The notes below the pieces were generated by a model. That model was not told the origin of the DNA. It made no database searches and was given only the letters and a program-made list of their open reading frames with translations. Positions 3,331 to 61,335 of a stretch of DNA of 64,000 bases are shown in pieces (position 1 is the stretch's first letter; each line of letters begins with the position of its first letter). The translations under genes were made by a program, and so were the position numbers. The stretch is from NCBI GenBank assembly GCA_027450205.1, contig DAIDJL010000004.1, forward strand, positions 204,413 to 268,412. The letters are read 5' to 3'. Origin of the DNA: Candidatus Parcubacteria bacterium (lineage in GTDB: Bacteria; Patescibacteriota; Minisyncoccia; UBA6257; 2-01-FULL-56-20).

Positions 3331-3401
3331 TGGGAGATCGTCTAACGGTAGGACAGGGGCCTTTGAAGCCCTCAATCTAGGTTCGATTCCTAGTCTCCCA
3401 G
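3331..3401 (+). tRNA. tRNA-Gln (anticodon UUG)
   Basis: It folds as a cloverleaf. The acceptor is UGGGAGA/UCUCCCA, the T-arm is CTAGG-TTCGATT-CCTAG, and the anticodon loop cuUUGaa has U33 and A37. CCA is not encoded. Confidence 0.85.
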
Positions 3402-3486
3402 CAGTCTAGTACAAGGTGTTAAACGCCCAGGAAGGGTGGGTTTATTAAGGTTAATTTTTATTCCAAAAAAGATGTAAAATTAAGCC

Positions 3487-6400
3487 ATGGAAATTAAAAA
3501 TTTCAGCTTTTTAAAAGATGAGCCTATTACCCCGGGGACGGTTGGATATTTTGAGTTTTATCATAAATATTTTTCCCCGGCCCTAAAAGATATGATTCTC
3601 TCAGATTCATGTCCCCATACTATTGGACTTTTTAGTAAATGGGGCACTGGCAAAAGTTCGATCATTGATCAATTAAAAACTGATCTCCCTAAGAATATTG
3701 CAAAAGTTTTTATTTTTGACGCTTGGAAATATCAAGAAGATTCGCTGCGCCGAACCTTTCTTATTAAATTTGAAGAATTTCTAAAAAGAGAGGGGTACAC
3801 CATTCCACTGGACGCTCTTTCTGGTTTTTATAAGAATAGGAGCAGTTCTACTTCTAGAAGTGGAAATATAAATTCCGAAAATACTGTAAAGGGCTGGCGA
3901 AGAGTGGGTGCCTTTTTCAAATCATATTGGCAGGTTTTGGTTTTTTTGGTTTTGCCCTTAGTGATTTTAGGAACTTTTAACGTATTACTTGCCTATCACC
4001 CTAGCAATGATTTTTTAATTGGGGTTAAGAATTTTTGTGTTTATTTAACGACGCTGTCGTGGTTTGTTTTCTTTTTAAAGCCAGTAGCCGATAAATTTCT
4101 AGATAAAATTAGCGGGAACATTTTCGCTTCAACCAAACAATATACAGAAATTCGCACTCAGATCGAAGAAGAGGAAAGATTGAATTCTCCCGAACAATTT
4201 GAAGCTGTTTTTAATAAACTGATCAGCCATGTTGATGATAAATTAGTGATCGTATTTGATAATATTGATCGCGTTCACGGAGATGTCGCCCTAAAAACCC
4301 TCTCAACTATAAAAACCTTTTTGGATCCAGAAGAAAAATCTAAGGTTGTTTTTGTAGTTCCTTGCGACTCGGATGCAATAAACCAACAGATTAAGGCATT
4401 TTATAAAAATGAAATCGACGAAAATTTCGACGAGTCCGAATATCTCAAAAAGTTATTCAATGTGATTATATACACTCCAGAATTCATCGACGACGATATT
4501 TATCAATACGCAAATGACCTAATCGCGGAAACTGGAGATCTTAAAGATTTACTTTCAAATGAACAAATCTTTTTAGTTATAAAATCTGCATTTAAAAACA
4601 ATCCAAGAGAAATTAAGCAATTTATTAACAATCTCATTGCTGTAATACTAGTCGTTTCTAAAAGTGAAGTTTCAGAATTATTGTTAAATTCTGATGCAAT
4701 TGGTTTTTTAGCAAAAGTTACTGTTTTGAAACAAAAATTTCCTGAAGCTTACAAAAAATTAAAGGAGAATTGGAGCGATCCACAAGGCGTATTAAGCGAA
4801 CATTCGAGTTCTAATTTAAAAGATTTTTTAACTTTAACGAGTGTTGTTACAACTAATAACGCTGAACCATATATCTATTTTAAGGCTCCACAAATAGAAA
4901 GAGATCTCAATGATTCTGTTGGTATTCGAAAAACATTAATCGAAGGAAATGTCGAAGAATTTGAAAAACTTGCCGCAACCGAAACAAAGAAAGATAAATT
5001 AATTCGTTTTATTGGCAGACTTTTATCTAATTACAAGTCTCAGCCACTAATTTTATTTCAAATTTTTAAGACACAGTTACAAGGATTGGCGGATTTAAAT
5101 GAACAAAGTTCTGCTCCAGACTTTCTCAACAACTGCATAGATGCTATTGAAGCAATTTGGAATAATTACCTGAAATTACCTCCAGGTCTGATATTTGATC
5201 TTTTAATAAAGAGCAATGATCACAAAAGGCGAGAATCAATCTTTGATCGCTATGTTCTTGCCCTAGGTACGGAAGAAATAAAGATCGAAGAAAATAAAAT
5301 ATATCTTCATGATTTAATCAATGAATTAATTAGGAATGAAAGATACCTTACTGCTACTCACCAGCTAGCAATTATGGATGCGATAAGACAAAATCTGGTC
5401 GGGCGAGACGATATTTTACTTCAATTCACCACCCTAGACATTCAAACAAAATTTATAGCTCCTGAGAATCTTAGGAGGATAATTCAAGAAGCTCTAAATA
5501 ACAGAACATTGAAGCATTATTTGGCTATTTTAGATTTATATAAAGAATATATTGGTGTTAATAACTTAGGTCCAAATCTTATCAGTCGGATACCTCAGTT
5601 GATTTCTTTAGAAAATAGCGAAATGCCGAATGCATCACCACGAAAACTTGAGTTTCACGATGCCCTTCTACAAATATTTACCAATTTTGCCAGTTATATC
5701 AAAGATATTCCTCCGGCTCAACAACAAGAAATATTCAATGGTTTGAATACTACCTATCAACAAGTCGGACAAGATCAGTCGATCCTTGCCAAGATAACGA
5801 ATTCCCTTCGTTGGCTCTCGTTAAGGACTACTGACGCTAATACAAAAACCCAGGCAGATGCAAAGGTTAATGCCTTTATATCTCAAGTCGATGGAACCGG
5901 TATGAAGTTGACCTTGAAATACTGGAGTTCAAAATCAAAGATAGCTTTTATAAATAATTACTTTGATTCCATTAAAGCGAGGGCTAATGTAGACGATTCT
6001 GTTCTTATGGAGGTATACGAAGTGGCCGATGAAAGCCAAAAAATAACTTTGATTGATTACATTATAAAAAATCGAGGCGATTCCGGTCTCGGATTCCTAC
6101 AAAAAATTGGTAACTCCCTACCGGATCGAATTAAAATTATCAACCTACTTTTATCAAAAGCTGAGGTGTTAGCCATTCAAGATAGAAAAGGTATTTTTGA
6201 CTATCTGCGAAACAAAATAGATGGAAATGATGACGCGACAGTAAAGCAGACCGCCATTAAGGAGTTCTTAAATTTCCTAAAATCTAAGAATCAAGATTTG
6301 ATTCAATTTGGTACTAGCTTGCTTAACGAACCGTTTTTGAATGATTCCGATCATAGAGAAATCACTAAAGAAATGTTGGCGTTTTACAATAACCCCCCCG

Positions 6401-6762
6401 ACATTCTTCAAAAACACGATCTTAGTTTTATTGACTATTTAATTCGGATAGAAGCGAAACTCCAAAACCCTCTAAAGGAAACTCTTGTATATTTAATTTT
6501 TAAAAATATTAGTCCAGACAGACCTTTTGAAATTATCCCCGCATTAATAGAAGATATCTCCTTGCTCAAGCCTAATTCTGATAAATATGAAAAGGATTAT
6601 AGTGATTTAATTGGGCGTGTAAGCGCATGGACTCCTCCAGATCAAAAGCTCCTCATAGTTCAGCAATTAAACGAGGCCATGAAAGGCATTCCGGGTAAAA
6701 AAACTAAGGATTATATTGCGATCCTAGAAAAACTTGTAAGTGCTGAGAAAGAAGCTAACTAA
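3487..6762 (+). CDS. KAP-family P-loop NTPase (1091 aa) with a large C-terminal alpha-helical domain
   Basis: The Walker A is KAP-type, IGLFSKWGTGKSS. Two TM helices are inserted into the NTPase domain. The Walker B is LVIVFDNIDRV. The gene is very AT-rich. Confidence 0.8.
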   Translation: MEIKNFSFLKDEPITPGTVGYFEFYHKYFSPALKDMILSDSCPHTIGLFSKWGTGKSSIIDQLKTDLPKNIAKVFIFDAWKYQEDSLRRTFLIKFEEFLKREGYTIPLDALSGFYKNRSSSTSRSGNINSENTVKGWRRVGAFFKSYWQVLVFLVLPLVILGTFNVLLAYHPSNDFLIGVKNFCVYLTTLSWFVFFLKPVADKFLDKISGNIFASTKQYTEIRTQIEEEERLNSPEQFEAVFNKLISHVDDKLVIVFDNIDRVHGDVALKTLSTIKTFLDPEEKSKVVFVVPCDSDAINQQIKAFYKNEIDENFDESEYLKKLFNVIIYTPEFIDDDIYQYANDLIAETGDLKDLLSNEQIFLVIKSAFKNNPREIKQFINNLIAVILVVSKSEVSELLLNSDAIGFLAKVTVLKQKFPEAYKKLKENWSDPQGVLSEHSSSNLKDFLTLTSVVTTNNAEPYIYFKAPQIERDLNDSVGIRKTLIEGNVEEFEKLAATETKKDKLIRFIGRLLSNYKSQPLILFQIFKTQLQGLADLNEQSSAPDFLNNCIDAIEAIWNNYLKLPPGLIFDLLIKSNDHKRRESIFDRYVLALGTEEIKIEENKIYLHDLINELIRNERYLTATHQLAIMDAIRQNLVGRDDILLQFTTLDIQTKFIAPENLRRIIQEALNNRTLKHYLAILDLYKEYIGVNNLGPNLISRIPQLISLENSEMPNASPRKLEFHDALLQIFTNFASYIKDIPPAQQQEIFNGLNTTYQQVGQDQSILAKITNSLRWLSLRTTDANTKTQADAKVNAFISQVDGTGMKLTLKYWSSKSKIAFINNYFDSIKARANVDDSVLMEVYEVADESQKITLIDYIIKNRGDSGLGFLQKIGNSLPDRIKIINLLLSKAEVLAIQDRKGIFDYLRNKIDGNDDATVKQTAIKEFLNFLKSKNQDLIQFGTSLLNEPFLNDSDHREITKEMLAFYNNPPDILQKHDLSFIDYLIRIEAKLQNPLKETLVYLIFKNISPDRPFEIIPALIEDISLLKPNSDKYEKDYSDLIGRVSAWTPPDQKLLIVQQLNEAMKGIPGKKTKDYIAILEKLVSAEKEAN

Positions 6763-8089
6763 TTTCATCGAGCATAATAGTTTTTTCGATTAAAACTAAC
6801 TTTGATTTGATTGTATTTAATAGTTTCCTCTTTTCGGGTATCGATCCATCTTCAAGAATATATTTGCTGTAATTTCTAATATCGATATCTTTAGCTCTGC
6901 AATCTTCGATCGATCGACCAAGAATATTGAAGTGGAATTTTTTATGTCGCTCAATTTCCAATTCAAGGTTTTTTCTGATGCCAGATCGATCTAAATCAAT
7001 TTTATTGATTAATTGAACCAATTGGTTAATTAGAGAGCGTTCTTCAATATAGAATTCCTTACAATTAATGTCCTTGGCACGGGTACATCCATAGTAAATA
7101 TATTTTGAGACTTCTCCATTTTTAAGTTTTTTATATTTATCCTGCGCCGTAACCCCTGAGCCACATTTCCCACAAAACATTAATTTCGTAAAAGCGAATT
7201 CCTTGTTAACTCTCGGCGCCTTCCGCTGAAGATCTAGCTGCTCCTGCGCTTCGTCAAAAAGCTCTTTAGAGATGATCGGCTGATGTTTGCCCTGATACCA
7301 TCTTCCGCTTCCCCGTGGATATTCAAATGTGCCGTGATAGAAATGATTATTAAGCAACGTGTAGACATTGCTAATGGTAAATGACTTTCCGTTTCGTGAT
7401 ACAAAGCCCGTTTCTTTGAGCCAGCGATATATCTTCCGGCCACTCCAGCCACCGTGAGCTACTTTCGTAAATATCTCTTTCACGATAGGAGCGCGGATCG
7501 GATCGAGGAATATCTGTCCTTTCTGGTCGACGTTCTTTGAGTTGAAATATCCCGTGGGAGCAACCGACGGCCAGAGTCCCATCTCGCACTTTGTTTTGAG
7601 CCCTCGCTTCACATTGATGCTCTTGTTGTCATTCTCTAGCTTTGCTTGAGAACCGAGAATCATGAGCAGGAATTTCTCGTTTGGATTATTCGTAAATCGC
7701 TGGCTGTGGGTTTTGATTTCGATGAGCTTCTTTTGGTCGAGAAGATCAACGAGGGCGCCGAGGTCACCGGCGTTACGACTCAAACGATCGGGATGCCACA
7801 CAAGAATGGCGTCGAACTTCCCCTCCCGGATATCCGCGAGGAGCTTATTGAATACTGGGCGCTGCCCACAGTCTTTGGCCGAGTGGGATTCCTTATAAAT
7901 GTCGATTACGTTCAAATTGTCCCGTTGGGCCACAAGTAGCATCTCTTTGGTCTGGGAATCGATCGACAAGGCCTGTTTTTCCTCCGCCTCGCTCGATTTA
8001 CGGGCATACAGGCAGTATTGGAGGGGTTGTGCCGTAACTGGCTGTGGACCGCTTATTTGGGCTCCCTGCAGTGGTGTTGTATATTCCAT
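6755..8089 (-). CDS. Large serine recombinase (resolvase/integrase family)
   Basis: A YARKSS catalytic-Ser region, a DRLSRN motif, a recombinase domain and a C-terminal zinc ribbon (CGKCGSG...YYGC) are present. Its 3' end overlaps the KAP gene convergently by 8 nt. Confidence 0.9.
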   Translation of the reverse strand: MEYTTPLQGAQISGPQPVTAQPLQYCLYARKSSEAEEKQALSIDSQTKEMLLVAQRDNLNVIDIYKESHSAKDCGQRPVFNKLLADIREGKFDAILVWHPDRLSRNAGDLGALVDLLDQKKLIEIKTHSQRFTNNPNEKFLLMILGSQAKLENDNKSINVKRGLKTKCEMGLWPSVAPTGYFNSKNVDQKGQIFLDPIRAPIVKEIFTKVAHGGWSGRKIYRWLKETGFVSRNGKSFTISNVYTLLNNHFYHGTFEYPRGSGRWYQGKHQPIISKELFDEAQEQLDLQRKAPRVNKEFAFTKLMFCGKCGSGVTAQDKYKKLKNGEVSKYIYYGCTRAKDINCKEFYIEERSLINQLVQLINKIDLDRSGIRKNLELEIERHKKFHFNILGRSIEDCRAKDIDIRNYSKYILEDGSIPEKRKLLNTIKSKLVLIEKTIMLDEIS

Positions 8090-8154
8090 ACCAACAACAA
8101 AGCCCGAGGCAGGTTTATAAGTCCAGCGGGCGAAGTGGATAACTTACTAAGCGG

Positions 8155-8829
8155 CTAAAGTGGTTTGGTGAGGGGTAAACCTTCAGACATTATATAAGTT
8201 AAAAATTCTCTCCCGAGAGGGGTGATAGTCGCCATGCCGGTAGTCTGCCATTCTTCAACTGGGGGCAAAGCCACAAGACCAGCATTCTTAAGATAATTTA
8301 AGTAGTCGGCGAACGGATAATTCCTGATTGTTGGATATTGCACTGCGGCATTCATATAAAACTGAGTTGCGTTAACTATCCTCATGCCGGCGGGAGTAGC
8401 GTTAAGCAGAGACAATAAGCTAAGCTGGCTGCCAAAAATATTACTATAGATCCTTTCAAACAATGTCTTCTTCCCTTGCTGAAGTAGCGCACCTTGTAAT
8501 TGAGCTATGCTGGTGCGCAAGCTTTCAGTAGACGCCTCGCTGTTCCTTTGTTCTTCAATTGGAAATGTTTCCACGCCTGAAGATCCTATTGATTTTATTC
8601 TCCGAATAAAAAGATCAACTGCCTCTTTATGTCCAAGCAAAATCAATAGGAAAATAATTAAGATTACGGCGGGCCATGAACTGAGAATTAATTTAAGATA
8701 GGTATCTAATATTTTCGAAATTTCTAAAATTTGCTGATGATAAAGTTTTCCGAAGACCACCAAAATAAAGGCGAGCAGGCCGGGATACCAGCTCGCCTTC
8801 AAAAAGCTTTTAACACCAGATCGTACCAT
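8155..8829 (-). CDS. Hypothetical membrane protein (2 N-terminal TM helices plus a soluble C-terminal domain)
   Basis: The ORF lies 52 nt downstream of the XRE gene on the same strand. It is AT-rich. Confidence 0.5.
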   Translation of the reverse strand: MVRSGVKSFLKASWYPGLLAFILVVFGKLYHQQILEISKILDTYLKLILSSWPAVILIIFLLILLGHKEAVDLFIRRIKSIGSSGVETFPIEEQRNSEASTESLRTSIAQLQGALLQQGKKTLFERIYSNIFGSQLSLLSLLNATPAGMRIVNATQFYMNAAVQYPTIRNYPFADYLNYLKNAGLVALPPVEEWQTTGMATITPLGREFLTYIMSEGLPLTKPL

Positions 8830-8881
8830 GCTTAAAGCATAAACCTAAACCGCCGAATTGTTAAAGTCGATGGAGATACTT

Positions 8882-9103
8882 TTACTTCAAAAAATATGAA
8901 ATCGGCTTCCCGTAAAGCTGAGCAAAGCGCTTGAGCTCGATCACATCAACCCGTTGCTGGCCTGATTCAATGTTTGAAATATGAGACTGCGGCCTGCCAA
9001 TTTTCTTTGCAGCCTGCACCTGAGTAAGGCCGGCGTCGAGTCGGGCTTTGCGCAAACGCTCCACAAAATAGGCATATTCCTTAGTCTGGATTGACTTGGT
9101 CAT
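8882..9103 (-). CDS. XRE-family HTH transcriptional regulator (Cro/CI-like)
   Basis: The motif LTQVQAAKKIGRPQSHISNIESGQQ is a classic XRE helix-turn-helix. Confidence 0.85.
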   Translation of the reverse strand: MTKSIQTKEYAYFVERLRKARLDAGLTQVQAAKKIGRPQSHISNIESGQQRVDVIELKRFAQLYGKPISYFLK

Positions 9104-9114
9104 TACCTCAACGC

Positions 9115-9149
9115 TATATCCAGACTTTCAATATCCAAACTTTGGATAT
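9115..9149. promoter_or_regulatory. Operator-like site: a 9-1-9 perfect palindrome ATATCCAAAcTTTGGATAT plus an upstream half-site ATATCCAGACTTT
   Basis: The site lies 12-46 nt upstream of the XRE start codon, in a divergent intergenic region. Confidence 0.4.
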
Positions 9150-9237
9150 TATGCTAAGCTAGCGGAAAAGGGCCTTAAAACCGGAGTGGATAACTCTGAC
9201 TTGCAATTACCTGGACGTAAGCTCAAATGCAAAAGCT

Positions 9238-9510
9238 ATGAAAATAACCCTTAAGAAAGTTCTGTGGTTCGCCGCGTTCTGGGCTGTATTTCTGCTTGGT
9301 TGGTGGCGAGGCTGGCAACAGAGTCCTGATGCTACCCTGCTTCGGCAGGCATCGGGATTACAAGCGCAAATCGATAAATGCACGCTGGTAACTCAAAAAG
9401 CATGCTCGGATATAGAAGCCCAAGATAAAACACTGATTGAACTGGGCGCTCCGCCCTCACAGGTAACACTTCATTGTTCCTCAAGTTCACTATCTCAACC
9501 CCTCGAATGA
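9238..9510 (+). CDS. Small hypothetical membrane protein (90 aa, N-terminal TM)
   Basis: It has a hydrophobic N-terminus and is AT-rich. Confidence 0.35.
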   Translation: MKITLKKVLWFAAFWAVFLLGWWRGWQQSPDATLLRQASGLQAQIDKCTLVTQKACSDIEAQDKTLIELGAPPSQVTLHCSSSSLSQPLE

Positions 9511-9707
9511 TCATGAAAGCTATCACGAAAAAATGGATTGAACTTATAGTCGCAGCCACAATCCTCTATTGGATTGTTTCAGGGAGCGACGATCGCCAGC
9601 TTCTTATAGGATGTGCAATCGGGATTATTGTGCTTCTCTTTAAGGACACGATTCGAGATGAGTTCAAAAAAGCTCGCGAAGACGACAGACCAAATTATTC
9701 TCCCTGA
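9507..9707 (+). CDS. Small hypothetical membrane protein (~66 aa, 2 TM)
   Basis: There is an ATGA start/stop overlap with the previous ORF. The longer 9474 start overlaps that ORF. Confidence 0.35.
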   Translation: MIMKAITKKWIELIVAATILYWIVSGSDDRQLLIGCAIGIIVLLFKDTIRDEFKKAREDDRPNYSP

Positions 9708-11056
9708 AGAATGAACTTTACCGCTTCATCTGCCCGCTTTTCGAAATTTGGATCGACTTCCTCAAGAAGATCAAAATATCGGTATCCTAACTTTTCGGCA
9801 CGACTTCTGAGCAGCTTATTCAATGGAATTGTTTCGGTTGTTTCTCGTTCAACATCACGTCGCACGGCCTCTTCTCCACGAGTAAGGATATCGCGATAAA
9901 CATAGCTTTTTTCTTTTACCTTTTTCGCATAATCAATTCTTGCCTGGGCATGTGAAGGACTGCTGTAACCAATAAAAATTGGTCGGATCTCAAAATTTTT
10001 AAGCTCTAAATCGCTTATATTCTCTGGGGTTATGGCTACGCCCTCCAAAAGCAAATCTGGTCCCATACGATGATGGTCGTAATATTTAATCAATCCTAAG
10101 CTAGCCTTCCATGCAAAATAATCTTCGCCCTGATCCCCGGATTCAAATCGGACATCTTCACTCGTAGGAGTTGTTGCTAAGACTTTTATATTAGCCGTTG
10201 CAACTCCTGCCTTGCTCATGAAAAAAGTTTGATTAACGGTCCCGCGAACCCCATCAGTTTCAACGGATATTAATGAGAGGTCGTCCTTAGTTTCGTCTTT
10301 TATAACGATGGGCGCCAATAAATCCCCCTCAACTTTTCCCTGGGAGATCATATCAAAAGGTTTCAGATGCGCTTCAAAAACAATTTGTTTGAAAGTTTTT
10401 GGGTCTTCGCCAACAAGCACGCTACGCAAGCCGGCCAAAATCGCCTCACGAGTGAGCGGAATTAACTTATGATGTTCTTCGATCTTTTCTCGTATGTAAC
10501 TTTTTCCAGCTTTAGCGTAACCTCCAATTAAATAAAGACGCCTCTTTCTCTTTGGTATAGGTTGCCATTCATTTTTCTTGAGATCGCTTTTTGATATTTC
10601 AGAATTACTAATAGCGCCACAGTTGGGGCACACGGCAACAATTTTGCGGGGACCTCGCGGATCCCATCCTTCGACAAATTGAAGCCATAGTTTTGCGGAC
10701 GATGAAGCTCCCGATTTTTTACCAATTGCCTTCATCCGAAGTGCTTCCAAAACTTGAACCGTATATTCCTTATACCGCATGACGATCTGCCCGAGATATC
10801 TATTCCGGGCAGCTTCCCAATCAATTTTTCTGTTCCAATCCGTAAGGGTGCCAAGGTCTTTTATCCCGAATCGCTGGGCGAACTGTGTTTGAGTTTTTAT
10901 CCCTTCCAACTCTTTAAGTAAGGGGTCGTCATGTCCGTGCTGCTCAAGAATTTCTGCAGGAAGTCCCCGATACCCCGATGGAAGCATATTCCACAAGACG
11001 TAAAGCTCAAATTCTCGCTTTTTGTAAGGTGTGCGGTTTTTGGCATTTATTGGCAT
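9695..11056 (-). CDS. Hypothetical protein with an N-terminal HTH-like region, a CPNC zinc ribbon and a P-loop (GGYAKAGKS) kinase/NTPase-like domain
   Basis: The GxxxxGKS Walker A was read directly. There is an hhhhEG Walker-B-like LLLEGV. No confident family assignment is possible. Confidence 0.5.
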   Translation of the reverse strand: MPINAKNRTPYKKREFELYVLWNMLPSGYRGLPAEILEQHGHDDPLLKELEGIKTQTQFAQRFGIKDLGTLTDWNRKIDWEAARNRYLGQIVMRYKEYTVQVLEALRMKAIGKKSGASSSAKLWLQFVEGWDPRGPRKIVAVCPNCGAISNSEISKSDLKKNEWQPIPKRKRRLYLIGGYAKAGKSYIREKIEEHHKLIPLTREAILAGLRSVLVGEDPKTFKQIVFEAHLKPFDMISQGKVEGDLLAPIVIKDETKDDLSLISVETDGVRGTVNQTFFMSKAGVATANIKVLATTPTSEDVRFESGDQGEDYFAWKASLGLIKYYDHHRMGPDLLLEGVAITPENISDLELKNFEIRPIFIGYSSPSHAQARIDYAKKVKEKSYVYRDILTRGEEAVRRDVERETTETIPLNKLLRSRAEKLGYRYFDLLEEVDPNFEKRADEAVKFILQGE

Positions 11057-11130
11057 TTGTATTTATTGTACATCCTCCACCAAAGCATTTGCTAGCAGTA
11101 TTAGCGAAGCGTAGAATAGGCATACCTCTC

Positions 11131-11712
11131 ATGAAAAAGATCAATCTTAAATGGCAAAAAGAGGCACTTCTTAAAAGCGCGAAGGCTATCGCGACCTCCG
11201 CGGAAACTTATGTTATCTTTGCTCTCGTCCTTCTCCTCTGGCGATTTGCCGCAGGGATGAAATTCGAGCTGCATAATATTGATCCGTTTTCAACTCCCAC
11301 CTTTTTTGAGCGGTCGTTCTATAGCGCGATCACCTTTTTTACGACCGGGCGGATCTTATATAAGTTAGGCTTCTACAAATTACTTTGGGAACTCATTCAA
11401 GATTGGCGTGATTACGTTGCGATAAAAGGAATTATCTGGGTGATATTAATGGGCATATCATACGAATACATAGTTCCGTGGGCATTCGATATTTTGAACG
11501 GCATATCATCTTTGCTTTTCAACATAGCCAATTTCGCATTGTATATGACCCCACCGATTGGGATAGCGGCTATTTTGAGCGCCATCTATTTTATCTATAA
11601 GCCGGATCCGGTAGTGCTTGATGTTAGAATGGAGCCTGACCAGGAGGGGTTGCCAATACCCATCCCCCTACCCTCAGAAGTGCCCGTGAACACTGATATC
11701 TACAACGACTAG
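11131..11712 (+). CDS. Hypothetical integral membrane protein (4 predicted TM)
   Basis: Start chosen at MKKINLKW. The longer ORF from 10978 overlaps the upstream gene. Confidence 0.45.
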   Translation: MKKINLKWQKEALLKSAKAIATSAETYVIFALVLLLWRFAAGMKFELHNIDPFSTPTFFERSFYSAITFFTTGRILYKLGFYKLLWELIQDWRDYVAIKGIIWVILMGISYEYIVPWAFDILNGISSLLFNIANFALYMTPPIGIAAILSAIYFIYKPDPVVLDVRMEPDQEGLPIPIPLPSEVPVNTDIYND

Positions 11713-11790
11713 ACCAGAGTACGCAGCCGACAAACGCCAAGTTGTTTGGCGAGAAAATCTGTTTCGTTTTGTCACATACCCGAACCTTGA

Positions 11791-14295
11791 TCAGGGCAGC
11801 TGCGGGATCGGAAGGTTCAGCGACGGGCACATAATCATATTGATCAAGCGCTGGGTTGTCTTATAGACATAGCCCGTCGGGGCAACGGCGTTCACCAACC
11901 CATGCGGAACCCAGGGAGCAAGGACATCGCTGGAATATTTCAATTGGAACTGGCGCACGGCCGCTTCAGATACCGGACCATAATAGCCGCTGATCGGGAT
12001 ATTCAAGCCGAGCTCTTTGTTCAAGAACACCTGCAGCTTCATCACTTCCACGGGATCGTTCTGCCCGTTCGCGTACCGCGCCGGCGTGATGTATCCCGTC
12101 AGATAATATCCGCATGTCGTGCTGGCGCCGAGTACCTGGCCCTGCTCCGCCGGAGGTGCCGTTACCACGATCGGCGCGGGTGCGGTAGTGGAAGCTCCAA
12201 GCACCAATCCCTGGCCGATCGGCGCCAATCGCCCTCCGGCGGCGACCCCTACGGTCGCTCCGCCGCCTCCGCCGGTATTATTGTTGCCGTTGGTTCCATC
12301 ATTGCTTCCGCCGCTCCGCACGACGACCGTCACAGAAGAAGTGTTGTCCTCGGGGGTCGGATCCGTAAAGCTGCCGAGCGTGCTTGATACCGTCGCGGTG
12401 TTCACGATCGTATTTCCCGCCTCTCCCTGCCCCACTGTCATTGCGATGGTCATCGTCGCTGTTGCGTGGGGTTCCAGCGTTCCCACCTCCCAATTTACGC
12501 CGTTGCCGACAAGGGCAAGTGATCCCTGAGAAGATGTCGCATTCGCAAAGGTCAGCGCCGTCGGCCACGTATCATTCCCCGTCACGAACGCCGCCGGGGC
12601 ATCGCCGCTGTTTTCAACCATGATGGAATACACAATGCCCGTTCCGGGATCGGGATTCGCATTGTCCACCGCCTTGCTCACGGCAAGATCCGGCCCGATC
12701 GTACCACCCCCGCCGCTTATCACCGGAAGCGTGATGCTGGAACTATTATTGGAAAGATTCAGATCTTCGCTCCATTCATCGCCGGCAACGGAGGCCGTGT
12801 TCGTAATGGCAGATGCGTCGATTCCCGGGTCCACAAGAGCGGAAAGATCAAGCGTCGCGCCGGAACCGGCGGAGAGGGTTCCGATCAGCCACGCGCCCGT
12901 CGAGCTTTCATAGCTGCCGATCGATGTGGTCGCATTCATGAACATGAGCCCATCCGGCAGGAGGTCCTCCGCTGTAATACCGGTAGAAGTTGCCGGGCCG
13001 AGGTTCGCGACCGCGATCCGATATCGAACGATGCTCCCCGGAGCCGTCGATGTCGCCTCGGCGGTCTTTTCCACAGAGAGATCGGCCTGCGGTATGATCA
13101 TCGGCCCGCTGAACACCGCCACGATCGTGCTTCCGGTCGTCGCCGAATCAATGGAGAAGGAACAGGAAGTCGACGTCGCGCCGGCGCACGGGCCCGTACT
13201 CCATAGCGCGAACGTGGAACTCGCATCCGGCGTGGCGAAGAGAGTCACAGGCGTTCCGATAGCGAACACCTGCATACAAACGGACGAGGTCGCATCGGCG
13301 GAATCGCAATAGATCGTTCCCGAGGCATCCGTAATGACGCCGTCCCCGGTGCCGCCCGTGGCAACCGTAAGCGCATAGGTTTGGATCCCGAATGCGGCAC
13401 TCACTTCGGCATCCGCCGACATTGTGACCGTGCAGACGCTGGATGTCCCGGCCGACGCACATGCGCCGCCCCATCCTTCAAATGTCGATGTGGGAACGTC
13501 GGGGCTCGCCGTAAGCGTCACCGTAGCATCCTTCGGGAAGTTCGCCGTACAGACCGCGCCCGCCGTGCCGCACGAGATCCCTGCCGGATCGCTCGCTATC
13601 GTTCCGGTCCCTTCACCCGTGGTGGTGGCCGTCAGAGTGCGGGTGGGACCCGATATGAACCGGACGTCGATCGTGTGATCGTCTGTGATATCGGTAAAGG
13701 TATAAGAATCCGCGGTCGTGGTGGAAACGCCGTCAATAAGAAGGGCGCCTACCGTTCCCCCGCCCGACGGAACCATCGTAAAGGTCTGATCGCCGTGATA
13801 CCCGACGGTCATGGTGCCAGCCGGAGCGATCGTCCCGCCGTCCCCCGCCACGGCGACGATCCTTGGACGAACCGTCACGGTGGTCGTTGCCGCGGCATAC
13901 TGTTCGTTATCCTCGCTCACTTCGCCGTGATAGGCCATTGCCGTCACGATATATTCCCCCGGTCCGGCATACGTATGCGTCGCGGACCATGTCGCGGAAA
14001 ATGTTTTCGGAGAGGCACTGGATGAAACGATGACAAAGTCGCTCACGGGAACCGTACGCCCGCCGTCGCCCCAATCCGTCACGCCAACATGAACGGCACT
14101 CAGCGAACCTGTATATGGGTTCGCTCCCGCCGTTCCTTGAAGGGTCACCGTCCGTTCAGGCTCGTCCAAGACTGTTGAAGCGATGTCTATGGAGTAGTTC
14201 ACCGGGATCGCAAAAACCGAAAGCGCGGGTGCTACCGCACCCCCCACAGCAACGGCGCCGAATATGATCAAATTAAAAACAAGTTTTTTGTTCAT
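11791..14295 (-). CDS. Large secreted cell-surface protein. It has a signal peptide, a PKD-like domain, several InlB-type B-repeat domains (C..C..F.GW.G.C motifs), DUF11-like repeats and a C-terminal peptidoglycan-binding domain.
   Basis: The N-terminal signal is MNKKLVFNLIIFGAVAV. Repeated modules are Gly/Thr/Ala-rich. The C-terminus KLQVFLNKELGLNIPISGYYGPVSEAAVRQFQ resembles PG_binding_1. Confidence 0.7.
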   Translation of the reverse strand: MNKKLVFNLIIFGAVAVGGAVAPALSVFAIPVNYSIDIASTVLDEPERTVTLQGTAGANPYTGSLSAVHVGVTDWGDGGRTVPVSDFVIVSSSASPKTFSATWSATHTYAGPGEYIVTAMAYHGEVSEDNEQYAAATTTVTVRPRIVAVAGDGGTIAPAGTMTVGYHGDQTFTMVPSGGGTVGALLIDGVSTTTADSYTFTDITDDHTIDVRFISGPTRTLTATTTGEGTGTIASDPAGISCGTAGAVCTANFPKDATVTLTASPDVPTSTFEGWGGACASAGTSSVCTVTMSADAEVSAAFGIQTYALTVATGGTGDGVITDASGTIYCDSADATSSVCMQVFAIGTPVTLFATPDASSTFALWSTGPCAGATSTSCSFSIDSATTGSTIVAVFSGPMIIPQADLSVEKTAEATSTAPGSIVRYRIAVANLGPATSTGITAEDLLPDGLMFMNATTSIGSYESSTGAWLIGTLSAGSGATLDLSALVDPGIDASAITNTASVAGDEWSEDLNLSNNSSSITLPVISGGGGTIGPDLAVSKAVDNANPDPGTGIVYSIMVENSGDAPAAFVTGNDTWPTALTFANATSSQGSLALVGNGVNWEVGTLEPHATATMTIAMTVGQGEAGNTIVNTATVSSTLGSFTDPTPEDNTSSVTVVVRSGGSNDGTNGNNNTGGGGGATVGVAAGGRLAPIGQGLVLGASTTAPAPIVVTAPPAEQGQVLGASTTCGYYLTGYITPARYANGQNDPVEVMKLQVFLNKELGLNIPISGYYGPVSEAAVRQFQLKYSSDVLAPWVPHGLVNAVAPTGYVYKTTQRLINMIMCPSLNLPIPQLP

Positions 14296-14745
14296 GTTAT
14301 TTTTATCGGGCGAGGCATTGACTTACATTCATTGACCTTGTCCGACATGTACTACAACATCCCCTATGCCGTATTACAAGACGAATGAGCAACCTCAAAA
14401 CGCCCTCAGCAAAACGCAAGGATGCCTTACTCTTCTTTTTTGTTTTGTCCGCATGTCCAGCGAACAGCGAACATATACCACAACGGGCCGCGACCGGCCC
14501 ATGCGCAGTTTCTTTGCCTTGGTATCACACGAGAGCCCAAACTCTCTGCGCTCTCACCGACATCCCACGGGATGGCACGATCTTGAGCGTCTGCGATGGC
14601 CAGTTCGATCAAAGAACTCGGCACTGGGTTTTTGGTAGCGGCCCACTCACTATTACATCCGCTCTTGGGATTCCTAACCATCGCAGACGGTGGCCGCAAC
14701 ACATCCCGTCCGTATCGGAAAAATCCTGGATCGAGGTGTCTGGCA

Positions 14746-20688: not shown

Positions 20689-20717
20689 GGGCATCCATAC
20701 GGATGCCCGATTTTTTT
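20689..20717 (+). terminator. Rho-independent terminator (GGGCATCC-ATAC-GGATGCCC followed by a T7 run)
   Basis: There is a perfect 8-bp stem followed by a T-run. It also sits immediately 3' of the lexA stop on the other strand. Confidence 0.6.
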
Positions 20718-21384
20718 ATTTCTTTTTCGTATGCGGCGTTTTGATGACCCCGATCACCTTGCCGTTGATCGCGAACTCATCATTCTCATGGATATGGATC
20801 GCCGGAAAATCGTGCGTGGATTCGGACATGAGGAGGATCTGATTATTTTCCTTGTCCACGTAATATTTTTTGATATTAGCCATGCCTTCAATGACCGATA
20901 ACACGATATCGTCGTTCGCGGCCTCGCGGTCCTCGCTGTCGATTATGACATAATCGCCGTCCTCGATCTTTTTTCCGCCGACATACGCCATATTCATAGA
21001 CGGGCCATCTACCTTGAGCGCAAACAGTCTGTGCGACAAGCGCGGGCGTTCGAGCAGAGTACTTGAAACGCGAAGATAACCCTCAATGTTTGCATTGGCG
21101 AAAATCATGGCCGGACCGGCGTTCGCCGCACCTAAGATCGGGATGGAAAGGAGTTTTGCATTCTTTAATACTCCCTGCACCGCCATGCCTTGCTGCTTTG
21201 TGGTGGTTATTGTGTGTTCCACTTTGTTTATATTGATAAATCCCCGTTTCGCAAGCTGCTGCAGATGATGTTTTATCTTCTGCGGCGACGCCTCCCCCAC
21301 AAATCCCCCGATCTCCCGCAGGGTGTAATTACCCAGATTCTTCTTCTCCGCCAGCGCCAATAGTTTTTGTTGTATATTATGCAT
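20716..21384 (-). CDS. lexA: LexA repressor (S24 peptidase)
   Basis: It has an N-terminal HTH, an AANAGP cleavage region, a catalytic Ser in VDGPSM and a downstream Lys. Confidence 0.85.
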   Translation of the reverse strand: MHNIQQKLLALAEKKNLGNYTLREIGGFVGEASPQKIKHHLQQLAKRGFININKVEHTITTTKQQGMAVQGVLKNAKLLSIPILGAANAGPAMIFANANIEGYLRVSSTLLERPRLSHRLFALKVDGPSMNMAYVGGKKIEDGDYVIIDSEDREAANDDIVLSVIEGMANIKKYYVDKENNQILLMSESTHDFPAIHIHENDEFAINGKVIGVIKTPHTKKK

Positions 21385-57207: not shown

Positions 57208-58008
57208 ATGGCCGAAGACCAATATCTTGATATCCTCGTTTCGTTTGAGCCGATTTTTAAGCAGGCCGCCGAGCTCGCGTGCGATTTGAGGAATAAAGTC
57301 TCGTCCTACAACAAATCAGAGACGGGCGTCGGGGCTCTCGACATCGTCACCGAGGCCGACCTGCAGGTCCAGGAATTCATCCTTTCAAAGCTGGCCGACA
57401 CTTCCCTCGCCGAGTGCGAGCTGATCGCCGAAGAAGCCACGCCGTCCGTTTCCCGATTCAAAGGGACGAACGGATTGGTGCTCACGATCGACCCAATCGA
57501 CGGCACGGCGATCTACGTGGATGGAGGAAACTATTTTTCGCTGATCATCGGTATGCACAATAAGAAGGACCTGCTCTATACCTATTACCGCTATCCCCTG
57601 CTTGGATGGACCAAGCGGATAGTGAAGGATTGTGCGGAAGACATCGGCGATGTGCCCGAGATGAAGACCAAGCCGGGCATCGACCCGATGCGCGTGATTG
57701 CGTATCTATCCCACGTAAAACCGGACGCGCTGCCGCCAGAGATCGAACAAAAGCTTGCGGCGGGAGGATTTTCCGTACATGGCTATAAGGACATTTTTGA
57801 CGAAGGCACCATGACCGCGCTGCTCTATGGCGGAAAGATCGCCGGCATGTGCATGCAAAACCCGGTCGCATATGATTGTTTGGGGTGCCTCCATTATGCG
57901 CAAGCAGCGGGCGGCTTTGAAATCTATTCGACTGTGAATCTTTCGGAGCCGACCAAGGGGCCGTTCGGGATATATTATCCCGGATTGTATGTCGTATGGA
58001 AAAAGTGA
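57208..58008 (+). CDS. Inositol monophosphatase-family (IMPase/FBPase/CysQ-like) phosphatase
   Basis: DIVTEADLQVQEFI and LTIDPIDGT motifs are present. Start taken at MAEDQY. Confidence 0.8.
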   Translation: MAEDQYLDILVSFEPIFKQAAELACDLRNKVSSYNKSETGVGALDIVTEADLQVQEFILSKLADTSLAECELIAEEATPSVSRFKGTNGLVLTIDPIDGTAIYVDGGNYFSLIIGMHNKKDLLYTYYRYPLLGWTKRIVKDCAEDIGDVPEMKTKPGIDPMRVIAYLSHVKPDALPPEIEQKLAAGGFSVHGYKDIFDEGTMTALLYGGKIAGMCMQNPVAYDCLGCLHYAQAAGGFEIYSTVNLSEPTKGPFGIYYPGLYVVWKK

Positions 58009-58042
58009 GGGTTACGGCGTTCAAATCCCTACAATAATAAAC

Positions 58043-58155
58043 AAATATTTATCTTTCCTCTCGTAAAGGTGCCTCGGAGGTACGAAGGTGCCGAGAGCCA
58101 AGGCGGCCAGCCAGTAGGCTGGAACGCCGTCCTTTACGAGAGGAAAGATAAATAT
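58043..58155. ncRNA. Unclassified structured element, copy 2. A conserved 63-nt core (58068-58131) is enclosed by a 25-bp perfect stem, extendable with one bulge.
   Basis: The stem AATATTTATCTTTCCTCTCGTAAAG/CTTTACGAGAGGAAAGATAAATATT differs from copy 1, while the core is 84% identical. A/T-rich tracts flank it on both sides. Confidence 0.45.
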
Positions 58156-58184
58156 TGTTTTTCTTAAATGTTATTCCTAAATCC

Positions 58185-59861
58185 CTAATAAGCATTACTA
58201 CACGCATAGGTTCCATCAGGGTTATTGTATCCTAGATAATAACTCCCTGGACCAACATCGTTTTGACATATTTGGCTTATATCTACACACGTACCATTAC
58301 TATACGCATAGCCAGAATCACACGCACAAGAATTTGTGCCAGCATTATAGTTCGCGCCATATCCCTCTGTATCCGTGCAGTAGGTATAACCCGAGACGCA
58401 TTGGCCGCCATACATGATATATCCAGTGTCGCACACACAATTATATTGACCACTACTACTATAAGTACCGTCCCACGTTTCATTTGGATAAGCCTGGGCA
58501 CATACCTGATAACCAGTTTCGGGAGGCAGCTCAACGCACGCGGTATCGTCTGAATTCCAGGTGTATCCACTCTGACATCCGCAAACGATCCCACCCTGAC
58601 TATTGTTGTTCGTATAGTCGCTGTTTACCCCATATTGATTTTGGCAAATTTGATCATTGGTCAATGTGACGCGTTGACGCGCGAGACTCACTGATTGAAT
58701 ATAGCCAGTCCCAGCAGTAAGACCTGAGACACCGAGCGTTGGTATACCCAAATCACAACTGCTCTTATCTAAGATAGCAAGTCCTCCAGAATTGCCGTGA
58801 TCAATGGCTCCATCAAACTTATAAATCGGCCCTGGGGTTTGGCCAGATATTGTTCCCTGTGTTACCGTCTCTGATACATTCAGATAATTGCCGGACGCTG
58901 GATAGCCAAAGATAGTTACGCTGTCACCGTTATCCACATTAGAACACCCTGAACCAATTCCCGTAAGAGATGTGTCATTGATTACCGGAATTGAAGCCAA
59001 TGGCGCTGATGATGAAACTGATCCATCAAGAGTAAAATCCGCCACATCTTCAGATGTGTTGGGGTCGTAATTATAGCTATGAAAGCTAAGTTGATAACCC
59101 CCAGAATCAGCGTTTATTGAAAAATCTGGCGCAGGCCCAGGATAATAAGCAAGACATGTCGGTGATCCTCCCCCCGTGTTTTCTCCATTATAAACATGAT
59201 AATTTGTTTCGATATAATTGGTCCCGCCATAGTCAACTGAAACACCAGAGCCGTAATCAAAACTACCTCCGGAATAATTTGGCGGAAAACAAGCCACAAG
59301 AACGACGGCTGGTTCTATTTGACTGATAAAAGATGTCGTAATGTTCGAATTTGTATTACCTAATACACTTTGTGACCCCTGGTTTATGGGTTGCGCACTT
59401 TGTTGTGATATACCGTTCGGCAAATTTCTGCTTTCATTTGAAGTTGTAGTTGCCGCAGCCGAAACAGCATTAACTGTGTCACTTGAAGTAGTACTAGATC
59501 CTTGAGAAGAATTCAGGCCAGACGAAATTATACCCCAAAGAATGGCAACCGCTATTATCAACCCTATGACTGTGGTGAAAACGGCTGCGGGAGAGAATGA
59601 TTCTTTGTCTGTATCAATAACGCTGGCTGTGCCATCAAGCGTAGATGTTTTATTGTTTGAAACATCCGATTCTTTTTCAGAAGGAGTCGATTGGGTAGAA
59701 TTTAATTTTTCATTATTATTCCCAACCTCTTTTTTATCCTCAACACGAGAGATTGAGCCCACATCTTTTTTATACCCACCTTCAACATCTCGCGGCTTGC
59801 CGCAAGTCTCACAAAATTTTGCATCAGGCTTAAATTTTGCACCACAATGCTTGCAGAACAT
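58185..59861 (-). CDS. Membrane-anchored trypsin-like serine protease with an N-terminal CxxC...CxxC zinc ribbon and C-terminal Cys-rich (C.C..GY) repeats
   Basis: The zinc ribbon is FCKHCGAKF...CETCG. There is one TM segment. The S1-like domain carries HVYNG and DHGNSGG. The repeats are CGCQSGY, CVCDTGY and CACDSGY. The gene is AT-rich. Confidence 0.55.
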   Translation of the reverse strand: MFCKHCGAKFKPDAKFCETCGKPRDVEGGYKKDVGSISRVEDKKEVGNNNEKLNSTQSTPSEKESDVSNNKTSTLDGTASVIDTDKESFSPAAVFTTVIGLIIAVAILWGIISSGLNSSQGSSTTSSDTVNAVSAAATTTSNESRNLPNGISQQSAQPINQGSQSVLGNTNSNITTSFISQIEPAVVLVACFPPNYSGGSFDYGSGVSVDYGGTNYIETNYHVYNGENTGGGSPTCLAYYPGPAPDFSINADSGGYQLSFHSYNYDPNTSEDVADFTLDGSVSSSAPLASIPVINDTSLTGIGSGCSNVDNGDSVTIFGYPASGNYLNVSETVTQGTISGQTPGPIYKFDGAIDHGNSGGLAILDKSSCDLGIPTLGVSGLTAGTGYIQSVSLARQRVTLTNDQICQNQYGVNSDYTNNNSQGGIVCGCQSGYTWNSDDTACVELPPETGYQVCAQAYPNETWDGTYSSSGQYNCVCDTGYIMYGGQCVSGYTYCTDTEGYGANYNAGTNSCACDSGYAYSNGTCVDISQICQNDVGPGSYYLGYNNPDGTYACSNAY

Positions 59862-59921
59862 CTTGAGGAAATTGTAATTTACTCTTAACTCTTATTCATA
59901 TCTAGTATTCATTTGATTGAA

Positions 59922-61019
59922 TTAATATCCCATCGCTTCTGCTTGTATATCCTCGCCTTCTTTTTGTGCCGATGCGGCGCAATCCATTGTATTCTGCTCG
60001 GCTTGAATACCTTGCTCGCCCTCTCCGAGTGAAAGTGTTACCGATGAACATTGCTCGTTTTGTGTTTGTTCAGATTCAATTTGAGCTTCTATGCTAGAAG
60101 CGATCCGAATAGCATTGTCGATTTTTTGCTGATTTTGAGCGTCTTGCAAAGTAAGCTGCGCGGCACTCAATTGCGAACTATAGGCCAGGTTAAGATTATT
60201 TTGTTCGCCCTGCTCCTCCTCAAGTGGTATCCCCCTTCCCTGCATATCGGCCAAGTCTTGAGCATATTGTTTTTGAAGGTTTTCAAGATTTTGTGCTGAA
60301 GTATTAACTGCAGTAATATCGAAATTCAGATAGCTTGTGTTTGGCTGAAAAGTCACCGGCTGCGGCGTATAGGTTTGCTGTGGCATAGGAGTATTGTAAT
60401 TTACAGTTGGCTGCGAATATGTCTCAGGCGCGGAGATAGCTAAAGCATTTCGCAGCGTGAACGAACCGCCGTCGGGATTGGTGACGGTGACACCATATGT
60501 CCCCGCTGGGAGCGATCCAGTATAGTTTACCGAAATGGAATTTGGCGAAACATCGTTAGGGTTTAATTTTACGAGACCTCCAATCATCAAAACCGCGCCA
60601 CTTTGAAAACCACTACCTTCAATTGTAAGAGTAAGAGAATTTCCCTGGATTATAATAGCTGGATTGATATAACTAATGGATGGGGATGAAATGGTAGGAC
60701 TCGTGGTTGCAACCGGTACCTCTGGAGGGACACTAACGACGGCTTGTTTTTGTGAAACTATTATTGCTTGTGGCTGCTTTGATGGCGCAGCCACTGAATT
60801 AATGGGTGGAGCTACGGATATTTTTTCGATGGGCCGGGTTGTAGCTATTGTTCCCGACGACGATGTTGAACTTGTCGTTTGAACTGCGATTTGAGAATTC
60901 GAGGTAGCGGGAATTATTGGAATAGTTTGGGGCGTTGCAGAAACGAGTCCAAAAAGAGCGGCTAGGCCTACAAATGAAACGATTGTTTTATGGAGAAGCG
61001 AACCGAAGAAGTTAAACAT
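59922..61019 (-). CDS. Secreted IPT/TIG-domain protein with a Gln/Glu-rich coiled-coil C-terminus
   Basis: It has a signal peptide and an IPT/TIG-like segment PSISYINPAIIIQGNSLTLTIEGSGF...VTVTNPDGG. The gene is AT-rich. Confidence 0.5.
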   Translation of the reverse strand: MFNFFGSLLHKTIVSFVGLAALFGLVSATPQTIPIIPATSNSQIAVQTTSSTSSSGTIATTRPIEKISVAPPINSVAAPSKQPQAIIVSQKQAVVSVPPEVPVATTSPTISSPSISYINPAIIIQGNSLTLTIEGSGFQSGAVLMIGGLVKLNPNDVSPNSISVNYTGSLPAGTYGVTVTNPDGGSFTLRNALAISAPETYSQPTVNYNTPMPQQTYTPQPVTFQPNTSYLNFDITAVNTSAQNLENLQKQYAQDLADMQGRGIPLEEEQGEQNNLNLAYSSQLSAAQLTLQDAQNQQKIDNAIRIASSIEAQIESEQTQNEQCSSVTLSLGEGEQGIQAEQNTMDCAASAQKEGEDIQAEAMGY

Positions 61020-61335
61020 TTTTTATTCTTCATTTTCCCGGCTGGGGAGCAAAAAACTCCCAGCCAGTAATGGCCCGAAGGCCACCCTATATCCCTTTCG
61101 AGATATGGCCCATCAAATGCGCTCTGACTAGGGGCTTTTTACCTTTGACGGAACTTTGACCAGGCCGCCGATTATTCGACGGTTTAGGCGACTTATTAAA
61201 TTGTGCTTTTATTTTGCCACTTATCCCTAAAAAAGGGAAGTTTCGCTGATTGAAGAAGTATCGATTTTTAAACCGGCAGAAAATCCAGCAATGGCAAGCT
61301 CTTTCGAGCCTTCTGGCAAAGAAAAATTAACTTCG

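Follow-up and report, generated by a model that had tools for sequence, protein, structure and literature searches.

An island that an integrase has placed at a tRNA gene is familiar in kind, and in P4-like elements and in those of the phage-inducible chromosomal island (PICI) type defence hotspots lie near the integrase. According to the Islander paper, tyrosine integrases catalyse tRNA and tmRNA islands (PMC4383910). The tycheposons of Prochlorococcus are cargo-carrying integrative elements at specific tRNAs of streamlined genomes, and some of them carry terS in a PICI-like way; only 27 of 937 elements have a large serine recombinase (LSR), and their definition includes a lineage-specific tyrosine recombinase, shared replication hallmark genes, and partial-tRNA repeats (bioRxiv 10.1101/2020.12.28.424599). 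In Patescibacteria, a survey of islands in metagenome-assembled genomes (MAGs) described type I restriction-modification islands (mSystems 2025, PMC12455944). Here, we analysed a stretch of 64,000 nucleotides from Candidatus Parcubacteria bacterium (contig DAIDJL010000004.1, hereafter the window), and within it the AT-rich block at positions 8155-11790. An initial annotation of the window had flagged this block, contiguous with a recombinase, as part of a possible defence or satellite island.

In our main reading, a single island of ~8.4 kb (~3403-11790) was placed by its LSR beside a tRNA-Gln(UUG) gene, and block 8155-11790 forms its variable arm on the integrase-distal side; we give this reading a probability of about 0.7. 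That the block is foreign DNA on a recombinase-bearing mobile element is supported. At the compositional level, the G+C content (GC) was 0.39-0.47 from 8.25 to 11.75 kb and 0.58-0.62 just past 11.75 kb, the rise taking no more than a few hundred bases around 11.79 kb. The remaining window, in 2-kb windows, lay mostly at 0.49-0.60. GC at third codon positions (GC3) was 0.38-0.55 in the block genes vs. 0.61-0.76 in seven host genes. These values confirmed the AT-rich block of ~3.6 kb proposed in the initial annotation, and also the abrupt return of high GC at ~11.79 kb. A high-GC gene with DUF11 repeats (11791-14295, minus strand) starts at 11791. The distal boundary zone (11713-11790) is a 78-bp convergent intergenic spacer that contains the hairpin CGCCAAgttgtTTGGCG and where GC passes from ~0.44 to ~0.60. 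The open reading frames (ORFs) that had been listed for the block were all present, at the same coordinates.

The tRNA-Gln gene (anticodon UUG; 3331-3402, plus strand) is placed exactly at the opposite low-GC edge of the island. It was detected by ARAGORN and by Rfam (tRNA, 63 bits), and it was the sole RNA element in the Rfam scan of the island. The island's integrase is the LSR (6755-8089, minus strand), apparently intact with 444 aa (most relatives have 427-450 aa) and with three Pfam domains: Resolvase (1.1e-25), Recombinase (6e-20), and Zn_ribbon_recom (1.1e-6). Among PHROG families it matched the phrog_95 integrase (7e-75). The gene on its tRNA side, outside the flagged block, encodes a KAP-family P-loop NTPase of 1091 aa (3487-6762, plus strand; GC 0.34; Pfam KAP_NTPase 1.6e-25), and this gene and the LSR stop codon overlap by 8 bp. 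The KAP protein presented partial, far-sub-threshold matches to QatA and PDC-S20 (NCBIfam QatA 70.6 bits vs. a cutoff of 600). The recombinase had been described as sitting in the middle and not at an edge, and this is correct: it looks central because islands of the LSR family have room for cargo between integrase gene and tRNA, a slot that the KAP NTPase fills here.

This layout emerged from the LSR family. A metagenome scan with the LSR retrieved 541 relatives with identities of up to 83%, and 80 loci at 56-83% LSR identity were fetched for layout analysis (individual loci are given below by L numbers). Several of the LSR-family loci come from Hainich aquifer metagenomes. The examined loci present a variable arm, the LSR, an optional cargo slot of 1-6 kb, and a convergent tRNA, in this order. 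A downstream tRNA was found in 36 of the 66 loci having at least 300 bp of flank downstream of the LSR, and it was convergent with the LSR in 35 of those 36. It was tRNA-Gln in 24 of the 36 loci (14 CUG and 10 UUG), and Tyr, Arg, Asn, Leu, Ser, Glu, or Trp in the others. Gap lengths between LSR stop and tRNA were bimodal: 15 loci had 70-296 bp and 20 loci had 1.1-6.3 kb. In the long-gap class the slot contains one or a few genes, most of them oriented against the LSR gene; where coordinates were compared (L038, L044, L052, and L027), the first cargo gene lies at most ~25 bp from the LSR stop or overlaps it. Slot GC was below that of the host flank in seven of the eight relatives with a flank GC of at least 0.46, and in the same seven the 4 kb upstream of the LSR were likewise below it.

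We scanned 43 slot proteins against Pfam. The matches included HamA, SduA_C, GmrSD_N, AAA_13, HEPN_RiboL-PSP, ResIII/DEAD and UvrD helicases, and MTES_1575 and HNH nucleases, together with DNA methylases, RmuC, DUF4238, and the KAP_NTPase of the window. Most slot families had one or two members only. With such varied cargo and so few members per family, the gap works as an exchange hotspot that takes up mostly defence-type genes. Loci with a filled slot include L027, L038, L044, L045, L047, L052, L054, L062, L066, L082, L089, L093, L094, and L107, and the defence-type gene differs almost everywhere. Thus, the "defence island" character that had been proposed for the block is supported at the level of the LSR family, through its slot cargo; the block proteins themselves gave no match to a known defence family.

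When compared to the islands of the Islander class, this locus shares a small foreign block at a tRNA, an integrase, and a variable position for defence-type cargo beside the integrase. It differs in that the integrase is an LSR, the far end has no displaced tRNA fragment or direct repeat, and the hosts of the LSR family are probably Patescibacteria. Tycheposons are alike as tRNA-side cargo elements, and sister LSR elements also carry genes for the small and large terminase subunits (TerS and TerL). However, our island has a serine enzyme, no replication genes, and no tRNA-fragment repeat, which sets it apart from tycheposons as they are defined. The islands of the Patescibacteria survey resemble the LSR family in that sister LSR elements also carry type I restriction-modification genes (HsdM/R/S), and the Hainich groundwater habitat is similar. 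Since the words integrase, serine recombinase, and tRNA are absent from the main text of that survey, the LSR/tRNA-Gln layout and its cargo slot are not described there (PMC12455944). What is unusual in our locus is a serine recombinase lineage tied to tRNAs, with no displaced tRNA fragment, with a defence hotspot on the integrase side, and with hosts that are probably Patescibacteria.

Patescibacteria have tiny genomes whose gene gain and loss are poorly known, and the window provides a concrete example of a family of tRNA-landing serine-recombinase islands, a use of tRNA genes that is usually attributed to tyrosine integrases. If the LSR family is confirmed, its recombinases and their target sites could be used as markers for horizontal transfer and defence turnover in uncultured bacteria, and possibly as integration tools. 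The interest of the flagged block lies mostly in the family-level pattern and in the fusion of a helix-turn-helix (HTH) domain to a kinase module; taken alone, the block is so far no more than an ordinary variable island arm.

Regarding the link between the arm and the recombinase, the most informative gene encodes the 453-aa protein (9695-11056, minus strand), a two-module fusion. Its N-terminal module, which we named c0 (residues 1-135; 10652-11056, minus strand), belongs to an HTH family with the motif QTxFAxxFGIKDLGTLTDWN. Stand-alone c0 genes were found 2-6 kb from close LSR relatives in L027, L022, L030, and L103. The closest parallel is L027, a MAG locus with a GC of 55-59% and a block of 41-51% GC beside tRNA-Gln(UUG). 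L027 carries a protein with two transmembrane (TM) segments divergent from c0, a Mrr-type nuclease, the LSR (58% identical), a UvrD-type helicase in the slot, and the tRNA, which is the order of the window island read on the minus strand. Its two-TM protein (134 aa) holds, relative to c0, the position matching that of the last island gene of the window, which is divergent from the 453-aa gene and encodes a multi-TM ORFan of 194 aa (11128-11712, plus strand); the two proteins are unrelated. Altogether, the abutment to tRNA-Gln, the intact LSR, the layout of the LSR family, and the presence of c0 near LSR relatives uphold the earlier claim that the block sits on a mobile element.

L027 presented two other features. 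On the chromosomal side of its tRNA-Gln (13985-14058), a 150-aa GIY-YIG/T5orf172 ORF (14044-14496, minus strand, from the first start codon) overlaps the tRNA by ~15 bp. Besides, its gene at 5125-7368 (minus strand) encodes Laminin_G_3, Big_5, and fn3 domains, and the window gene at 11791-14295 (minus strand) encodes the DUF11 repeats mentioned above; the proteins are otherwise unrelated.

Several observations weigh against the main reading. Neither the att sites nor the exact distal endpoint were located: there were no att repeats or displaced tRNA fragments at the island ends, neither in the window nor in relatives, no direct repeat of at least 10 nt between the distal boundary zone and the tRNA-side junction, and no clear conserved half-site in the junction alignment of the window and L027. 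Ends free of repeats fit serine recombination, with its 2-bp crossover, but they leave the distal endpoint to be placed by composition alone. Exact-sequence look-ups of the 453-aa, 224-aa, and SodA proteins of the window led to no other contig, and no relative with an empty site was retrieved. The KAP block has a GC of 0.34 and the arm one of 0.43, and GC3 within the LSR gene drops from 0.61 (5' 600 nt) to 0.38 (3' 735 nt), a step far outside the family, where the mean difference between halves was 0.034 (standard deviation 0.055). Moreover, arms are unrelated even beside LSRs that are 71-83% identical, c0 was found in one of the 80 metagenome loci and the XRE-family regulator of the arm also in one of the 80, and the stand-alone homologues of the kinase module and of the 224-aa protein of the arm are mostly located in ordinary chromosomal neighbourhoods. 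Finally, the kinase module of the window has E204 where 28 of 30 homologues have Asp and L207 where 25 of 30 have Arg. It keeps the Walker A lysine and E338-G339; its activity is uncertain because E204 and L207 replace near-invariant residues.

Prompted by the GC3 step, we considered a recombinant origin of the LSR gene. Its N- and C-terminal halves share their nearest relatives, so this origin is unsupported.

Since the arm is not conserved beside close LSRs, it could be a separate acquisition. Block 8155-11790 would then be an older, partly ameliorated islet or remnant, and an independent LSR+KAP element would have landed later between it and tRNA-Gln. We regard such a double acquisition as unlikely. 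It would account for the lower GC of the KAP block, for the GC3 step, and for the unrelated arms next to LSRs of up to 83% identity, and tRNA-proximal accretion of leftover DNA has been described for tycheposon islands (bioRxiv 10.1101/2020.12.28.424599). However, stand-alone c0 genes at 2-6 kb from LSR relatives in four loci speak against it, and in one of these, L027, the full gene order recurs beside the same tRNA. It also sits badly with the low GC of the 4 kb upstream of the LSR in seven of eight relatives, and with LSR halves that share their nearest relatives and make no recombinant origin visible.

If the block is the arm of one LSR island, its gene content is the next question, and nearly all of its genes are orphans. 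Scans of the block against Pfam, PHROG, PADLOC, and NCBIfam gave no match to a recognised family of defence, packaging, capsid, primase, or replication proteins, and no model in them matched the 224-, 90-, 66-, 453-, or 194-aa proteins; PADLOC-DB 2.0 gave only generic HTH matches, from the XRE protein. In the island as a whole, the proteins presented no primase, helicase, or replication (rep) domain, and no capsid, portal, or TerL. This is in line with the initial annotation, which could name no family for the block proteins, the XRE protein being the exception. The arm would act as the regulatory and accessory cargo of the element, possibly in phage exclusion, to which the slot cargo of the LSR family apparently contributes, and not as a packaging or replication module.

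At the regulatory level, the arm encodes an XRE-family HTH regulator of 73 aa (8882-9103, minus strand; Pfam HTH_3 2.4e-13, 50.3 bits vs. a cutoff of 23), which matched transcriptional repressor and regulator families of PHROG at ~1e-10. A homologue 52% identical to it lies beside a related LSR in L046. It had been described as a repressor just upstream of the 224-aa gene, and indeed both genes are co-directional and 52 bp apart, with the 224-aa gene downstream. A 134-bp intergenic spacer separates this operon from a divergent pair of small ORFs, and it contains a putative operator (9116-9149), in which a perfect 19-bp palindrome, ATATCCAAACTTTGGATAT (9131-9149), is partly overlapped by a degenerate copy of itself (9116-9134). 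The search for this 9-1-9 palindrome gave two matches where 0.06 were expected, and none of 100 shuffles reached two. The XRE protein would bind the palindrome at 9131-9149, autoregulate, and keep the divergent small membrane genes repressed, as in a Cro/CI-like switch. The likeness to XRE/Cro-CI repressors with palindromic operators lies in the 73-aa HTH_3 protein and the perfect palindrome within a divergent spacer; the difference is that no peptidase partner (S24 or M78) is present here, and L022 has an XRE protein with Peptidase_M78.

A second kind of repressor was seen elsewhere in the window, where a gene at 20716-21384 (minus strand), in a slight GC dip, encodes a LexA-like repressor of 222 aa (PDB LexA 3.7e-8). 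Proteins of ~210-220 aa, 36-46% identical to it, are encoded in the arms of L054, L074, and L096. Thus, some sister elements may be SOS-responsive.

The 224-aa membrane protein (8155-8829, minus strand) was characterised from its translation and hydropathy. Its TM segments lie at residues 9-27 (weak) and 47-65 (strong), and a linker and a C-terminal domain of ~100 aa follow. The two TM segments of the initial annotation were recovered in this way, one of them only weak; its C-terminus "of no recognisable family" holds only in part, because nine homologues share FERxYxxIFGSQ...YLNYLK...GREFL and two of the nine have a precomputed match to PF14947 (winged-helix HTH_45). Judged from these homologues, the C-terminal domain is probably a winged helix. 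The contexts of the homologues are heterogeneous, unrelated to each other, and mostly not mobile.

The divergent pair consists of a 90-aa ORF with an N-terminal hydrophobic segment (9238-9510, plus strand) and a 66-aa ORF with one TM segment (9507-9707, plus strand). The start of the second overlaps the stop of the first as ATGA, which can be read directly in the sequence, and each protein has one weak-to-moderate hydrophobic segment. The description of two tiny TM proteins joined by an ATGA overlap was therefore accurate, and no homologues were found for either ORF. The 194-aa ORFan at the end of the island matched only itself among 5.8 billion proteins. It had been counted as a 4-TM protein; it is multi-TM, and hydropathy gave 3-4 hydrophobic segments.

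A word-indexed search with the 453-aa protein returned only its own copy, annotated with 430 aa from M24. The exhaustive HMMER search retrieved 275 hits in two non-overlapping sets, and no other protein among ~15 billion joins the c0 and kinase modules. The c0 homologues are stand-alone proteins of ~130-200 aa that start with MPxNAKK..YKExEF..Y.LWKS.P and contain QTEFAKKFGIKDLGTLTDWN. Their alignment already begins at residue 1, which makes the upstream ATG at 11056 (M1) the likely true start. The segment at 10987-11056 is missing from the public 430-aa copy, which starts at M24.

The c0 family has no Pfam or PHROG model. In the single-sequence AlphaFold model of the whole 453-aa protein (pLDDT, the model's own confidence score, 36.5), the c0 region is helical, with a pLDDT of 58-79 over residues 11-87. 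The HTH-like N-terminus noted before belongs to this c0 family. c0 is a DNA-binding-type HTH domain associated with these mobile elements, and it would tether the kinase to DNA, probably that of the element. All 29 genome loci with c0 are from MAGs. Their titles name Patescibacteria groups in 26 cases (Saccharibacteria, Paceibacteria/Paceibacterota, Wolfebacteria, Nomurabacteria, and "Patescibacteria group") and only "bacterium" in three. In the viral contigs of IMG/VR, c0 was present once and the kinase module not at all.

Genes of the c0 family were seen in two settings. The first is a cassette with a ParB-methylase, a second methylase, c0, a 68-aa protein, and a ~495-aa protein. This cassette, where c0 has ~128 aa, was present in L007, L017, L019, L022-L026, L030, L032, L035, L036, and L103. 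The ~495-aa partner belongs to no recognisable family and has the consensus MKxLTxxLRKGNLTPRER...; in many cases a reverse transcriptase, a ResIII helicase, or a type III restriction-modification system comes after the cassette. In the second setting, c0 closes a series of small ORFs with higher GC near tRNA-Gln or tRNA-Leu. There, a 185-aa form of c0 (L009-L016, L020, L021, L028, and L034; at ~8.0-8.55 kb) ends 6 kb of small ORFs on one strand, whose GC exceeds that of the sequence downstream by 10-20 points, with tRNA-Gln or tRNA-Leu within 0.06-7 kb in several loci. These small-ORF runs were considered as rRNA operons and Rfam found no rRNA in them; they may be another type of integrated element.

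The C-terminal half of the 453-aa protein (residues 165-453; 9695-10564, minus strand) is a P-loop kinase-fold module, with stand-alone homologues of 213-292 aa. The family motifs are GGxxRxGK[ST], a near-invariant TD, ED..AW, D[VIL][LIV]xEGVAITP, FxGY, and GYxYFD. The P-loop GGYAKAGKS (residues 178-186) and the Walker-B-like LLLEGV (335-340), both pointed out from the sequence, fall on these conserved motifs in the alignment with homologues, and E338/G339 are conserved in 32-33 of the 33 homologues. A disordered insertion of ~80 aa (residues ~227-305) was found only in the window protein.

AlphaFold2 with the homologue alignment modelled the kinase module with a pLDDT of 75.5, and above 90 in the core. 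Foldseek on this model retrieved CMP, AMP, and UMP kinases, and the structure comparison with a viral library gave nothing specific for the module. A generic nucleoside monophosphate (NMP)/gluconate-kinase fold is well supported by the model. Zeta toxin, polynucleotide kinase, and primase or replication initiator had been put forward as candidates for this domain, and it resembles none of them specifically. An identity as zeta toxin/PezT is not supported: Zeta_toxin reached 18.4 bits vs. a cutoff of 22.3, and in one homologue only. When compared to P-loop small-molecule and NMP kinases (BH3686, 2bdt; Atu3015, 1zp6; gluconate kinase; CMP and adenylate kinases; chloramphenicol phosphotransferase), the module presented 10-15% identity and no Pfam kinase family at threshold; it also differs by its ~80-aa insertion and by its fusion to an HTH domain, which is absent from these enzymes.

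The two modules are joined by a linker that holds the CPNC motif, which is absent from both homologue families. It had been taken for a zinc ribbon. Four ligands need two CxxC/CxxH knuckles and the protein has one cysteine pair: of its 453 residues, only C143 and C146 are cysteines, with no second ligand pair, so the zinc ribbon was discarded.

The same genes could be arranged as a self-contained abortive-infection or toxin-antitoxin cassette, in which the XRE protein represses the small membrane proteins, the kinase, or both, as toxic effectors released on infection. This is a doubtful reading. The XRE gene and its operator do lie next to the two tiny membrane ORFs, a point in favour that comes from the layout only, and the LSR island family is rich in defence cargo. 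The neighbourhoods of the kinase homologues point both ways, one (P0014) being beside HEPN_AbiV, HNH, and C5 methylase genes and two others among housekeeping genes, where homologues of the 224-aa protein are also found. On the other side, the defence models of PADLOC and Pfam matched no arm protein beyond the generic XRE-type HTH, Zeta_toxin stayed below its cutoff and appeared only in a homologue, and the 90- and 66-aa ORFs are predicted only and lack homologues.

More speculatively, c0 could be a so far undescribed DNA-recognition protein of Patescibacteria mobile elements, either with a function like that of TerS or as the recombination directionality factor of the LSR family. The window would then carry its only kinase-tethering version, and the LSR family would be an unrecognised lineage of tRNA-targeting serine-recombinase islands. 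We hold this whole proposal to be improbable. If true, some of the LSR-family islands that bear TerS and TerL and have no visible virion genes could be the first satellites of phages of the candidate phyla radiation (CPR).

The initial annotation had also likened the N-terminal HTH to a phage small terminase and the locus to a PICI-like satellite. In such a satellite, the N-terminal HTH of the 453-aa protein would serve as a small terminase that redirects the packaging of a helper phage, and the XRE protein would be the master repressor. Here, this is a very improbable explanation, and it is weak because nothing in the arm supports packaging or replication. The island has no primase or rep, capsid, portal, or TerL gene by Pfam and PHROG, and the alignment of c0 to the TerS of sister elements with hhalign gave a probability of 2.3%. 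The resemblance comes from the family: many sister elements have a ParB-methylase, a TerS-like HTH (Pfam HTH_Tnp_1_2), and TerL directly upstream of the LSR, and the c0 cassette takes that post-methylase position in L103, L022, and L030. A c0 homologue (P0097) gave weak PHROG matches to TerS (E ~1e-3); the window protein itself gave no Pfam or PHROG match to TerS, so c0 was rejected as TerS. The ~495-aa partner was likewise rejected as TerL (hhalign 0.2%), since it lacks a Walker A and matched nothing in Pfam, PHROG, or PDB. The size of ~8.4 kb and the combination of LSR and XRE repressor would fit a satellite, though they are not satellite-specific, and the single IMG/VR contig with c0 and none with the kinase do not favour a satellite.

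The sister elements that do carry both terminase genes are L061 (4.3-9.9 kb), L074, L079, L082/L085, L095, L107, L108, and L111. In them, a ParB_N-N6_N4 methylase, a TerS-like HTH (~150 aa), and TerL (~480 aa) lie immediately upstream of the LSR and tRNA, with no structural genes between. This TerL is a Terminase_6C protein with Walker A VAFRGSGKST and Walker B LIICDDIEDL. The order is odd for a prophage, and such elements could be satellites or packaging-competent islands in CPR bacteria.

The idea that the block is ancestral housekeeping DNA of merely odd composition is effectively refuted, despite some 224-aa and kinase-module homologues among housekeeping genes, by the low GC3 of its genes when compared to the host, their ORFan or nearly ORFan nature, the contiguity of the arm with an integrase at a tRNA, and the distant relative L052 (fmt 45% identical), which has tRNA-Gln and fmt on the proximal side and, at this equivalent locus, an LSR island with an entirely different, unrelated arm.

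Finally, the window contains a second low-GC stretch at 58000-61410 (0.43 at 58-60 kb), next to tRNA-Glu(CUC) (61335-61410, minus strand). An ORF of 365 aa in it, with no PDB relative, adjoins an ORF of 558 aa (58185-59861) with partial similarity to a 456-aa protein encoded by the arm of the LSR element L096. This stretch may be another island.

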